From Octopus sinensis (lineage: Eukaryota): DNA of 64,000 bases. Made by a program: the position numbers and the translations under genes. The DNA lies in contig NC_043005.1 of assembly GCF_006345805.1 (NCBI RefSeq), forward strand, positions 67,332,001 through 67,396,000. The letters are read 5' to 3'. Each line of letters opens with the position of its first letter. Positions within the stretch are counted from its first letter, which is position 1. Shown here in pieces: positions 13,301 to 43,479 of the stretch. The notes beneath the pieces are model-generated. The model worked only from the letters and a program-made list of their open reading frames with translations, was not told the DNA's origin and searched no databases.

Positions 13301-14043
13301 ACAACGACCTCGCACCCAAAAAAGTAAACAAGAGAGACTGAGAGAAACAGGCAGAAACAAGGAAAATGCCCCTTGTATTTGAACACTATGAAATATTCTT
13401 TTAAAAAACTTTTGTTTTAATTTTTCCAAAATATAATTGTTTTCCATACTTACATTTGAAAAGTTCCAATGACTGAAACGGGAACTGAATTGATTTTTAA
13501 AAAAATATTTTAGCATTTTCTATCTTGAGTTTTTCCATATATATATATATATATATATATATATATATATATATATATTATAATATATATATATATATAT
13601 ATATATATATATATATATATTATATATATATATATGTGGTGTATATATATATATATATATATATAAAGTTAAAAGTTATCGGTAAACGTTTTTGATTTTC
13701 ACTCTCGATAAATTCATCCCCTTTTGTGTTCCCAGCACTCGGAATCTTAATTTAGGAGCCCTTAATTGTATAACTACATGAATAATATTTTTCTATATGA
13801 ATAATATTTTTGTCTTATGACTAATTCGTCTTTTGTGCTGGGCACCTGGTAGTAAATAATATTACTACCCTTCTTGTTTATATTCGTATATTACATGATG
13901 GATTTATTCGTAAAATTCTTCCCGGCATGCCCTATACTGCCGTGTAAATTTTGCGTCTGCGCAGAGATTTGAAAAGTTAAGATCTGCTAGTAGTCGGGTT
14001 CAACACATGGTCCCACATCGCTGCAGACCTCGATTAAATTTAG

Positions 14044-14123
14044 GCGACTCGCTGATGAAGCTAGCCTTAGCAAACATATTCTGTGTTTTGCTAGAAAGAA
14101 GCAGAAACCGCGGTTCGAGTTGT
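14044..14123 (+). ncRNA. Type I hammerhead ribozyme motif, copy 1
   Basis: Stem I GCGACUCG/CGAGUUGU; CUGAUGA at 14052-14058; stem II GCU/AGC plus inner UAGCAAA/UUUGCUA hairpin; GAAA at 14104-14107; palindromic ACCGCGGU stem III; GUU cut after 14115. The 10.1-11.1 position is A.A rather than a canonical pair. Confidence 0.75.
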
Positions 14124-14497
14124 AAAAGTTATCGGTAAACGTTTTTGATTTTCACTCTCGATAAATTCATCCCCTTTTTGTGTTCCCAGCACTCGGCATC
14201 TTAATTTAGGAGCCCTTAATTGTATAACTACATGAATAATATTTTTCTATATGAATAATATTTTTGTCTTATGACTAATTCGTCTTTTGTGCTGGGCACC
14301 TGGTAGTAAATAATATTACTACCCTTCTTGTTTATATTCGTATATTACATGATGGATTTATTCGTAAAATTCTTCCCGGCATGCCCTATACTGCCGTGTA
14401 AATTTTGCGTCTGCGCAGAGATTTGAAAAGTTAAGATCTGCTAGTAGTCGGGTTCAACACATGGTCCCACATCGCTGCAGACCTCGATTAAATTTAG

Positions 14498-14577
14498 GCG
14501 ACTCGCTGATGAAGCTAGACTTAGCAAACATATTCTGTGTTTTGCTAGAAAGAAGCAGAAACCGCGGTTCGAGTTGT
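14498..14577 (+). ncRNA. Type I hammerhead ribozyme motif, copy 2
   Basis: Same core and stems as copy 1. Confidence 0.75.
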
Positions 14578-14950
14578 AAAAGTTATCGGTAAACGTTTTT
14601 GATTTTCACTCTCGATAAATTCTTCCCCTTTTTGTGTTCCCAGCACTCGGAATCTTAATTTAGGAGCCCTTAATTGTATAACTACATGAATAATATTTTT
14701 CTATATGAATAATATCTTTGTCTTATGACTAATTCGTCTTTTGTGCTGGGCACCTGGTAGTAAATAATATTACTACCCTTCTTGTTTATATTCGTATATT
14801 ACACGATGGATTTAATCGTAAAATTCTTCCCGGCATGCCCTATACTGCCGTGTAAATTTTGCGTCTGCGCAGAGATTTGAAAAGTTAAGATCTGCTAGTA
14901 GTCGGGTTCAACACATGGTCCACATCGCTGCAGACCTCGATTAAATTTAG

Positions 14951-15033
14951 GCGACTCGCTGATGAAGCTAGCCTTAGCAAACATATTCTGTGTTTTGCTA
15001 GAAAGAAGCAGAAAAAAACGCGGTTCGAGTTGT
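14951..15033 (+). ncRNA. Type I hammerhead motif, copy 3, with altered GAAA/stem III
   Basis: gaaaaaaacgcggtt instead of gaaaccgcggtt (mutation or homopolymer assembly error). Confidence 0.55.
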
Positions 15034-15264
15034 AAAAGTTATCGGTAAACGTTTTTGATTTTCACTCTCGATAAATCATCCCCTTTTTGTGTTCCCAGCA
15101 CTCGGCATCTTAATTTAGGAGCCCTTAATTGTATAACTACATGAATAATATTTTTTATATGAATAATATTTTTGTCTTATGACTAATTCGTCTTTTGTGC
15201 TGGGCACCTGGTAGTAAATAATATTACTACCCTTCTTGTTTATATTCGTATATATATATATATA

Positions 15265-39963: not shown

Positions 39964-40389
39964 GTCGTAGGGGTGGCTGTATGGTAAGTAGCTTGCTTAC
40001 CAACCACATGGTTCTGGGTTCAGCCCCACTACGTGTCACTTTGGTCAAGTGTCTACTGTAGCCTCGGGCCTACCAAAGCCTTGTGAGTTGATTTGGTAGA
40101 CGGAAACTGAAAGAAGCCTCTCGTATATATATATATATATATATATATATATATATATGTGTGTGTGTGTGTGTGTGTGTGTGTGTGTGTTTGTATGTCA
40201 GTGTCCCTCCCAGCATTGCTTGACAACTGATGTTGGTGTCTTTATGTCCCCCGTAACTTAGCGGTTCAGTAAAAGACACCGATAGAATAAGTACTAGGCT
40301 TACAAAGAATAAGTCCTACGGTCGAATTGTTCGACTAAAGGCTTTGCAGCAGTATGGCCGAAATTAAATAATTGAAACAATTAATAGAA
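39964..40389 (+). mobile_element. SINE family A
   Basis: Homologous to 30565-30979. Confidence 0.88.
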
Positions 40390-40443
40390 TAATATTATAT
40401 ATATATATATATATATATATATATATATATATATATATATATA

Positions 40444-41241
40444 TATAAGAATGAATGATTTTATATATAATGAACGTGAAATACAGGAAGGGACGAACAC
40501 GGAACACAGACAAATCATTCGAAGCCTTCAATCTTCAGTCAGACACCGAATCATCATAGCAAATTTCGGCTGTTCAATTCTGATATTTGCTCCAACTCGG
40601 CCAGCCCCAAGAAAAAAACTAAGCTGTAAGCATTAGATTTCTTGGTAGAAGACAGGAATGTGAACGCACAAGACGGATGTAAATACAAGAGACGAAAACG
40701 AAATTGAAAACAGTAATGAATAAACAAAAATATATATAACGGTGGTTGTCATACGACTTTAGACCAAATGAGACAGAAACAACAACATAGCAGCTGGCGT
40801 AGAAATAATTACCGTTTCGGTAGCGGGGACACATGTTGGTCGAGATACGATGGCCAACAGAATGGTTTAAGAAGCAGCAGGTTGCAGGAGAGAGAGAGAA
40901 AGAGAGACAGAGAGAGAGGGAATCAAAGAGGGTGGAAGGCAGGGGACAGAATCAGTGACCAAGAGAAAAGGAGAAAGAAGGGATTAAGGAGGATGGGAGG
41001 AAGAGGGGAGGAGGATGGGAGGAAGAGGGGGGAAGAATCGGAGGGCGCCAAAAAGTTTGGTGAAGAAGCAATGGCGGGTAGGAAAGACAGTGTGTATAGA
41101 AGTCGTGCAGGGTTTAAAATTGGACAAACAAACGGGGGGGTGCACGTAACGCCGCAATAATATAAGAATGAATGTTTTTATATATAATGAACGTGAAATA
41201 CAGGAAGGGACGAACACGGAACACAGACAAATCATTCGAAG
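40444..41241 (-). repeat. Non-coding element with ~80-bp terminal direct repeat (period ~717 bp)
   Basis: ataagaatgaatg...acaaatcattcgaag occurs at 40444-40524 and 41161-41241; adjacent to (TA)n. Confidence 0.75.
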
Positions 41242-41422
41242 TCTGTGTGTGTACATGTTTTTCATTCATGCATATAAACGAAGTTATACATAAGTATAAA
41301 TATATGCATATATAAGTGTATGTTTGTGTGTACATATATGCGTAGTAACAGGTAGAGAGAAAGGAGAGAGAGGGAGAGAGAGGGGAGAGAGAGGAAGAGA
41401 GAGAGCAATAAACCAATCTAAC

Positions 41423-41563
41423 TTCGGTTGTGGATTTGAGAACTATCACTTCCTTTAGGTCACGGATGCCTCTATCAACAGGTGTCACATCAGGCAGTTT
41501 TACGCACTCTGTTTGAAAGGCTTGAAACTCAGTCAACCGAAACAGATCTCTATGTCTAAGTTC
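41423..41563 (-). CDS. Candidate host coding exon (141 bp, phase 0-0), product unknown
   Basis: ttccattttag acceptor, gttaga donor, only one open frame: ELRHRDLFRLTEFQAFQTECVKLPDVTPVDRGIRDLKEVIVLKSTTE; non-repetitive sequence. Confidence 0.45.
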
Positions 41564-42876
41564 CTAAAATGGAATAATTCTGTTTATTAACCTGACCTTT
41601 ATCTGTATACTTAAGATAAAATACATACCAGAAATACCCTCGTTTGCAAAAAAGACTCAATGTTTAAGGTTATAAGCCATAACTGATTTTGTGTCGTATA
41701 TTATCTCCGTTTCAGAATTATATATTAATTAAGAATATATATATTTTTTTCCAGTTGCCGTTCTATTTCTAATAGCGTAAATATTCTATCCCAACGTTGT
41801 TCTCCCCACCACCCTCACATTCAATTTCAATGTGTTTGCTTACTTATGTTCTATTATTCTTGTATTGTAATGGGAATTAGATTACTGGGTATTCGCTCGC
41901 CTAGCAGACGTCTATTTCAATTCCCATACTCCATCTGTCGACGTATATTAGTCATATGTCCACAAGAGATGCATACGACGTCTTAACAATGTGAAAAGAA
42001 GACAAATAAAATCAATAAGAAAGAATAAAATAGAATGAAGAGAGTGTGACATGAAATGTATATCTGAATATTTTAGTGTGTGTAGTTGAATTAACACTTA
42101 ACTGAGAAAAGAGAATTCCGATTAATAACATATTTCCATACTTCTAAGTTAGATCGGCAGTCGAGCATTTATTATAACTAACATGCTTTGTGATCAGAGA
42201 ATATTTTGGTATGAATATACCCGAATAAAAGAAAACTCTATTATTAGAAGTTAAGACAAGCTAATATGAAATTTTATGGCATTTTCAAATTGACACACAT
42301 GATTCAATTATATTTAAGTGAAGCCATTCGATTCGCAGCTCATGCTATGATCATGTTATAACGTGTGCCATGACATTGCGGCAAACCGGCATCGGTTACT
42401 AATAATCGAAAACATTCACCAAAGTATGAACACCTTCAGATTTTTCAGTCTTGTTCCCCTTACCCATTCTCTTCTATGAAGCTAACGCCTAATTTCAAAA
42501 TGTGTGTGTGTGTGTGTGTGTGTGTGTGTGTGTGTGTGTGGTGTGTGTGTGTGTGTGTGTGTGTGTGTGTGTGTGCAAATGTTCTGCTGCTTACCCTTGT
42601 AATGTTAAATACCCGAGGAAAAAGAAACAAATATAATCATAAAAATGTTGTTTTCTGCGATTCTCAGTCAAAAATAGCCAAATAAATGAGAAATAAATTC
42701 TATAAAACAATTGCATTGACGATAATTTGGGGAATGGTGAAATATTACGGAATTACAAAATGCGCAGCGCATGAAATGTGAAATCATTTCCACAAATAAA
42801 TTTGTACGTATGTATACATATGTGTGTGTTTGTATATATGTATATACATATATATATATATATTTTTTTTTTTTTT

Positions 42877-43479
42877 TATATTATATAGAGGGCATTATTA
42901 CACATAAATGCCGCACGCTAGGAGGGACTTTTAAAGTCATAACTATCAAATATAAACAAATCGTACCGAATGCAATTCTCGAAGCGAGTCATTTAAAAAC
43001 AGAATTTAGCTACAGATCACCTGTGATTTCGCAATCAACGCAGTATCTGCGTCCCTTGCTCGTCAGTGAAGCGAATTCAAGATATATCATGAATGAACAA
43101 AATCAACATACCAGACAGAGAACCGTCGCATCCATCGTAGCATATGGAACTGTTCACCCCTCATACATCTATGTAAATGGCGGGCTTTTTCGAATTGCAT
43201 TTCGCTAACAACGTGCTTCTTCGGAACAAATTTCAAAAATAGGATAACATCTTAATAAGAAATGATCAAGTAGTTAGCGTGAAAAACCTCATAAGAGAAA
43301 AAAATCTGTAAATTTTTTCACTTGAAAATATTTATCTATATTATATAGAGGGCATTATTACACATAAATGCCACACGCTAGGAGGGACTTTTAAAGTCAT
43401 AACTACCAAATATAAACAAATGGTACCGAATGCAATTCTCAAAGCGAGTCATTTAAAATCAGAATTTAGCTACAGATCA
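42877..43479 (-). repeat. 1.3 tandem copies of a 460-bp HHR-containing unit (retrozyme/pLTR-like)
   Basis: 42877-43019 is repeated at 43337-43479; flanked by (TA)n. Confidence 0.9.
43002..43078 (-). ncRNA. Type I hammerhead ribozyme, canonical core
   Basis: Minus strand: GAAUUCGCUUCA CUGACGA GCAA GGG ACGCAG AUA CUGCGU UGA UUGC GAAA UCAC AG GUGA UC UGUAGCUAAAUUC; AUC cut between 43015 and 43014. Confidence 0.85.

Follow-up and report, generated by a model that had tools for sequence, protein, structure and literature searches.

Hammerhead-bearing retrozyme arrays of Octopus sinensis show Penelope-type insertion marks and a conserved 3' boundary away from the predicted cut site

Introduction

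What sets the ends of a tandem array whose units each carry a hammerhead ribozyme motif? The question is raised by a 64,000-nt stretch of the Octopus sinensis genome (NCBI RefSeq assembly GCF_006345805.1, contig NC_043005.1, positions 67,332,001 to 67,396,000 of the forward strand; hereafter the window, with positions counted from its first base), which holds two such arrays, one from each of two families that we term F1 and F2. The standard case of a ribozyme defining the 5' end of a retroelement is the R2 retrotransposon with its 5' hepatitis delta virus-like ribozyme, and the original prediction for the window held that both arrays begin at the predicted cut site, their boundaries being set by ribozyme processing. 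Mapping 200 insertions of the two families, we found the 3' end to be the conserved boundary, at 111-250 nt past the cut, and the claim of arrays beginning at the cut site to be largely wrong.

Animal non-LTR (long terminal repeat) retrozymes were defined, and circles were proposed as their templates, by Cervera and de la Pena (2020, PMC7229834), and retrozymes were linked to Penelope terminal repeats by Li et al. (2026, 10.64898/2026.07.22.740005). Circles were also proposed for Penelope tandems, in a paper describing the U3-A8 type of hammerhead core (PMC4209133). Penelope-like elements have been described as truncated, with inverted copies, a tail of 30-40 bp and insertion into TA (Craig et al. 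2021, PMC8557442), and in vitro work has found copying to begin internally at two sites, with both target strands extended and hammerhead cleavage dispensable (Frangieh et al. 2024, PMC11167929). That retrozymes are passengers of Penelope-like elements has so far been proposed from co-occurrence and sequence relatedness, and Li et al. call the mechanism unsettled.

Results

The F1 insertion (array 1; 13670..15253, plus strand) consists of 3.5 tandem units with a period of 454 nt and 98% matches, and the F2 insertion (array 2, of subfamily F2a; 42877..43479, minus strand) of 1.3 units of 460 nt. With the first base after the predicted cut numbered +1, the start of array 1 lies at +8 (+3 when a 2-nt deletion is permitted) and that of array 2 at -5, on the upstream side of the corresponding cut. 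These positions bear out the starts first noticed, about 7 nt downstream of a GUU cut and 5 nt upstream of an AUC cut. Both arrays also end part-way through a unit, as had been seen (~220 and ~140 nt): array 1 at +222..230, the major 3' site of F1, and array 2 at +138, the short site of F2. All four ends adjoin (TA)n runs, with a target run at 13537..13665 upstream of array 1 and a short one 3' of it, a run at 43480..43497 at the 5' junction of array 2, and a short A run leading into (TA)n at the 3' end of array 2. The coordinates behind the claim of a common start at the cut were therefore right, but the claim was loose and describes no rule, as only 8 of the 80 single-arm loci other than the window's have a start no more than 10 nt from the cut. 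In array 2, moreover, the first five bases (43475..43479, minus strand) lie upstream of the predicted cut and at least four of the five are not (TA)n microhomology; the 3' product of cutting cannot template such bases, so a cut RNA end cannot explain this array.

Insertions were sampled from the 2.72 Gb assembly with exact probes whose matches were listed in genome order, to avoid length bias. The first sample comprised 49 loci of subfamily F1a (from the first 100 of 134 probe matches) and 58 F2 loci, all on contig C1 (from the first 100 of 2132 and the first 100 of 2229 matches), and the replication sample comprised 46 F1b loci (first 100 of 256 matches) and 47 F2a loci (all 61 matches, minus the window copy and one locus already used), giving the total of 200. 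Ends were called against real units; seven 5' ends were moved by hand after the junctions had been read (L104, L217, L130, L339, L341, L278 and L371), a duplicated junction at L303 was counted once, internal rearranged pieces were excluded from the first sample, and array 1 of the window was excluded from the pooled 5' counts. Loci ranked by BLAST favour long copies and were not used for the 5' statistics, though some re-entered through the pattern lists. For the replication, the 5' windows were fixed beforehand and a step ratio above 2 was predicted.

The 3' ends of each family fell mostly into two narrow internal windows, which were picked from the data and cover ~10% of the unit: +100..120 or +210..236 in F1 (about +111 and +222) and +125..150 or +235..255 in F2 (about +138 and +247). 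These windows held 72/77 F1a and 77/88 F2 ends in the first sample and, with internal pieces included, 67/77 F1b and 55/82 F2a ends in the replication, or 271 of 324 ends overall. The ends ran into TA in 290 of the 324 cases, lay within 10 nt of the cut in one, and were canonical at every array length. When breakpoints are plotted against the cleavage triplet, the check that had been proposed, the outcome is thus the reverse of what was claimed, with 3' ends fixed away from the cut and 5' ends mostly scattered along the unit. A fixed internal start combined with a variable stop also accounts for the n-plus-partial shape of the arrays, which had been taken as a clue to the template; reverse transcription is indeed favoured, but the shape by itself does not favour a circle over a linear multimer.

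Two inverted arms, both from the same template type, were present at 116 of the 200 loci. In the first sample, 45 of the 58 two-arm loci paired a short with a long 3' end and none had two long or two short ends, a pairing that amounts to a one-sided tail of ~110-130 nt. All four preferred 3' ends lie after a predicted hairpin that closes near CC and is followed by 10-15 AT-rich bases, a combination that we regard as a candidate start signal. The 10-mer CCTTAATTGT is common to the F1 short end (+97..111) and the long end of subfamily F2b (+249..262).

At the 5' side, 229 of 255 pooled ends (~90%) lay outside -3..+10, and 307 of the 333 copying passes that reached +10 went on beyond -4, so that ~92% crossed the cut. 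Unlike R2, then, these families have ~90% of their 5' ends elsewhere, with the cut read through, and the idea that ribozyme cutting defines element starts is refuted as a general rule. One part of it is weakly supported. The stretch -3..+10 held 26 of the 255 ends against 11.1 expected, a ~2.3-fold excess, plain in the first sample but marginal when the replication is taken alone (11 against 6.0 expected, p 0.044); pooled, it was the best 13-nt window of the unit, with a nominal p of 9e-5 for a window picked afterwards and a median p of 0.001 when one arm per locus was used. At -3..+3 there were 11 ends against 5.0 expected (p 0.013). In the first sample, 25 of 141 ends fell at -3..+21 (~8-10 expected) and only 7 at -60..-4, and in a blind scan the largest step came at -3 for F1 and at -6 for F2; with AT content controlled for, the rate ratio was 3.1, so AT content is not the explanation. 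A seven-fold step across the cut failed its pre-set replication, and only the weak excess was retained. From these counts, cutting by the ribozyme probably determines no more than a small minority of 5' ends.

The junctions with TA give a similar picture. Among the matches listed (the first 100 of 123), 33 TA-junction loci were read by eye, one array with an internal TA run being excluded; 5 of them joined TA at +1, 2 upstream of the cut and 26 at +4..+20, the search pattern itself extending only as far as about -10. Some of the +1 calls, which would favour starts at a cut end, are ambiguous because the AUA triplet matches the TA target. Against such starts, TA was joined 15-45 nt upstream of the cut at 24 further loci, some of which may belong to related families, and genome-wide TA junctions near the cut numbered 25 among 1143 minus-strand anchors against 16 among 1050 at a control site. 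One locus stood apart: at L303:1475-2179 both arms start exactly at +1, beside the same foreign sequence, the layout that would result if the enzyme had run off the end of a cut RNA and switched to a different template.

The length of an array is probably fixed when it inserts. Arms from a single locus were closer to each other than to those of other loci in 25/27 and 18/18 comparisons, with median divergences between same-locus and different-locus arms of 0.65% against 2.2% and 0.28% against 2.6%; both arms exceeded 900 nt at 8/13 against 10/103 loci (p 6e-5), near-mirror lengths occurred at some inverted loci (3740/3474 and 1328/1403 nt), and inner junctions lay no more than 15 nt apart at 26 of 116 two-arm loci against 7.8 expected. 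Some arrays of 9-17 units were nearly uniform (units 0.00-0.06% apart), and several others had units ~1% apart with hints of a 2-4-unit periodicity; in array 1 of the window, units 1 and 3 have in common an allele found in 0/155 other units, which might point to a dimer circle as template, but unit 3 has four further differences. Uniformity and periodicity do not decide between a circle and a linear multimer. Two other accounts of the paired arms were rejected: under twin priming of the L1 type the long arm should stop at the second start site, and long-arm 5' ends did not cluster there, and simple fold-back of the long arm fails in 14 of 54 loci, where the arm with the short end is the longer by more than 100 nt. 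Two variants at first thought to be confined to the longest F1b array turned up in two shorter loci as well and were dropped as evidence.

Both arrays are real and contain type I hammerhead motifs. In array 1 (plus strand) a custom motif scan found a first predicted hammerhead (14045..14122), with a 7-bp helix I, a palindromic helix III and a GUU triplet with the cut at 14115/14116, and a second (14499..14576), cut at 14569/14570, so that 14116 and 14570 each directly follow a predicted GUU cut. A third copy (14952..15032, limits approximate; cut near 15026) was read from the sequence and is unmatched in the scan; an A-run damages its GAAA/helix III junction. The predicted F2 hammerhead in array 2 (43009..43072, minus strand) has an AUC triplet with the cut at 43015/43014, the first base after it being 43014, and in this copy a U-U mismatch in helix I. 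The scan of the 64,000 nt found three matches in the arrays and one elsewhere, against a mean of 0.18 in block-shuffled windows; the match outside both arrays is a weaker, hammerhead-like one at about 53210-53300 (plus strand; first base after the cut, 53288). Rfam, searched at the gathering score only, gave no hammerhead match, and folding of single sequences yielded z-scores of no more than -1.1 and -0.9.

The motif is best supported at the level of the family, by covariation of helix I in F2, where 55 loci yielded 21 distinct variants, with A-U 16/G-C 4 at pair 1, C-G 12/U-A 6 at pair 2 and U-A 8/C-G 7/U-G 4 at pair 5; one helix I is common to all listed F1 variants, and covariation was scored in F2 only. 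Both families have the core CUGANGA plus GAAA, an NUH triplet and helices I-III, with GUU (70) and GUA (49) triplets in F1 and AUA, AUC and AUU in F2. Their units are non-coding, tandem, low in GC (AT content of the two families, 63% and 67%), 444-487 nt long and furnished with one type I hammerhead each. Contigs from four runs that we guess to be RNA cover the unit, and such contigs cannot show ends or circles; in three of the four, all contigs over window position 14115 carry a GUA triplet, and the window itself has GUU.

The enzyme was sought among Penelope-like coding elements. No open frame with reverse transcriptase (RT) and GIY-YIG domains was found in either array, and the open-frame check over array 1 found none of at least 120 aa; two opposite-strand frames cover array 2 and run into the TA repeats. 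One F2a locus led to a coding family with both domains above Pfam cut-offs, a minimal hammerhead-like motif and TA targets. In 10 of the 13 matches to this motif the 3' end falls 97-103 nt past the predicted cut, and a longer end lies ~40 nt further on; the end motif of the family, CCTTTATACAATAT, resembles CCTCTATACAATAT of F2. At that locus (L032:150-2100) a broken Penelope-like coding copy is joined to the F2a array through ~90 unrelated bases, between two TA runs, possibly by a template switch. A second coding family is represented in the window by a 5'-truncated Penelope-like element (35340-37229, plus strand) between TA/GA runs, with an RT plus GIY-YIG frame containing one internal stop, a Zn-finger-like linker and a hammerhead-like motif near 37107; its Pfam scores fall just below cut-offs, +122 and +161 are the positions of its ends, and on the 5' side its 3' end is repeated as an inverted copy with a 39-nt tail. 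Both coding families thus share the layout of F1 and F2, with a hammerhead-like motif, a 3' end ~100-120 nt past the predicted cut, an optional ~40-nt tail and a TA target, and their hammerhead-like cores are of the U3-A8 type, with those of F1 and F2 being canonical. Two other stretches resemble such elements: an older, frameshifted copy at 11300-12650 (plus strand), judged similar from its translation, for which the frame tested gave no Pfam match, and a remnant at 52449-52850 (minus strand) like the GIY-YIG endonuclease end of another Penelope-like family, unconfirmed by Pfam.

Discussion

F1 and F2 are non-LTR retrozymes with Penelope-type insertion marks, namely internal start sites and a one-sided tail of ~110-130 nt, and are new families of an already known kind. 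As far as the accessible text of the two retrozyme papers goes (PMC7229834; 10.64898/2026.07.22.740005), they resemble animal non-LTR retrozymes in their low-GC, non-coding tandem units with a type I hammerhead and a short palindromic helix III, in their dispersal as monomers to multimers and in the presence of Penelope-like elements in the same genome; their units lie at or above the 150-450 bp range of PMC7229834, and, unlike in those papers, insertion ends are mapped here. With endonuclease-positive Penelope-like elements (PMC8557442) they have in common 5' truncation, partial tandems, an inverted 5'-truncated copy, a tail at one end and (TA)n targets, and they differ in having neither an RT nor a GIY-YIG frame. 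The Anolis Poseidon element PAc (PMC11167929) likewise has two internal starts downstream of the hammerhead cut and AT-rich targets; it is an autonomous element studied in vitro, its starts are not homologous to the target and no RNA reads end at the cut, whereas the 3' ends of F1 and F2 lie at short TA-like microhomologies and their 5' ends are slightly in excess near the cut.

Taking these marks together, we consider it probable that F1 and F2 arrays are inserted into (TA)n by a Penelope-like RT/endonuclease that starts at fixed internal sites and usually reads through the predicted cut. The enzyme would nick both strands of a TA run and prime at two internal sites; each copy would extend upstream over a variable number of units, and the two copies would be joined by microhomology or fold-back. 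Less firmly, a minority of templates may be ribozyme-cut linear RNAs, giving the small 5'-end excess at or just after the cut (~6% of ends). The least certain step is that long uniform arrays might arise by rolling copying of ligated circles and not from uncut linear multimers, a choice on which we are about evenly divided. What we infer about the driver is its class, Penelope-like.

Several results weigh against this account. The tail is ~3 times the published 30-40 bp (PMC8557442), and the junctions lie within (TA)n, where target-site duplications are unreadable. A parent element was not found: F1 and F2 showed no extended similarity to the 3' regions of the two coding families tested, the best candidates among 150 listed matches included no intact open frame (the longest is 394 aa), and no matching parental terminal repeat turned up, compared with 24 of 57 Xenopus retrozyme families that matched known elements (PMC7229834; 10.64898/2026.07.22.740005). 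On the 5' side, the excess lies mostly at +4..+15 and not at +1, the step pre-set at the cut had a ratio of only 1.5 on new loci (p 0.14), leaving the prediction unmet, and the stratified replication at -3..+21 gave 14 ends against 10.9 expected (p 0.21). Long arms co-occur less markedly when a single subfamily is considered, so that their link is partly a subfamily effect, the rank correlation of arm lengths over all pairs is 0.16 (p 0.10), and units ~1% apart are not expected from a single monomer circle.

The strongest rival, less probable in our judgement yet deserving real weight, keeps Penelope-type insertion and takes the template to be, in every case, a linear read-through multimer that stays uncut. 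The ribozyme would then have no role, and the near-cut excess would come from stalling at helix I, from microhomology, from a nearby transcription start or from chance. This reading is favoured by the 5'-end peak at +3..+15, which is the 3' edge of helix I, by a cluster of F1b 5' ends on the opposite strand of helix I (-62..-65), by the existence of mixed-unit arrays, by the weak replication of the near-cut excess and by uncut RNA being the main substrate in PMC11167929. Against it stand the excess that remains at -3..+3 and compensatory change in helix I, and near-identical arrays of 9-17 units would need equally long uniform sources, none of which was present for the longest F1b array among the sampled loci.

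Somewhat more tentative is a specific form of the preferred Penelope-type insertion, a twin-primed rolling-circle retrotransposition in which the template would be one ligated ribozyme circle, monomer to tetramer in size, with two sites spaced by 110-130 nt at which an enzyme dimer primes both nicked strands. Each subunit would make up to ~17 turns, and now and then a turn would end when the hammerhead cuts again. If this were true, the arrays would be genomic evidence of hammerheads acting on templates in vivo, and circles would be transposition intermediates.

It is unlikely that single seeded copies were later expanded by unequal crossing-over, like ordinary satellites. Within-array uniformity and some of the 2-4-unit periodic variants could arise in this way, and local amplification is proposed by Li et al. 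(10.64898/2026.07.22.740005); some arrays may have been expanded so. Against it, where one arm of an inverted locus is long the other tends to be long too, at times with near-mirror lengths, 3' ends are canonical at all lengths and the copies are spread across many contigs. Reverse transcription is favoured by the combination of fixed 3' ends, 5' truncation, inversions and co-occurring long arms, and on this the original prediction was sound. That ribozyme cutting defines element starts as a rule, which the starts of the window arrays and the first-sample step had suggested, is highly improbable given the conserved 3' end, the read-through of the cut, the step that did not replicate and the upstream start of array 2.

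To the case for retrozymes as Penelope passengers, the end map adds structural evidence, in the form of Penelope-type marks and exact candidate start sites. It also bounds the role of the ribozyme: as ~92% of passes cross the cut, templates would be ligated circles or cleavage would be mostly off during copying. The listings from our literature search, with most subscription journals outside its coverage, showed no study mapping where retrozyme insertions end with respect to the cut. Both families are young, with hundreds to about two thousand unit copies, making both template options testable.

Other features of the window

Just downstream of array 1, at 15655-16568 (minus strand), lie broken frames that we take to be of a Tc1/mariner-like transposase. 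A degenerate 69-bp tandem repeat of 4.7 copies occupies 55566-55888.

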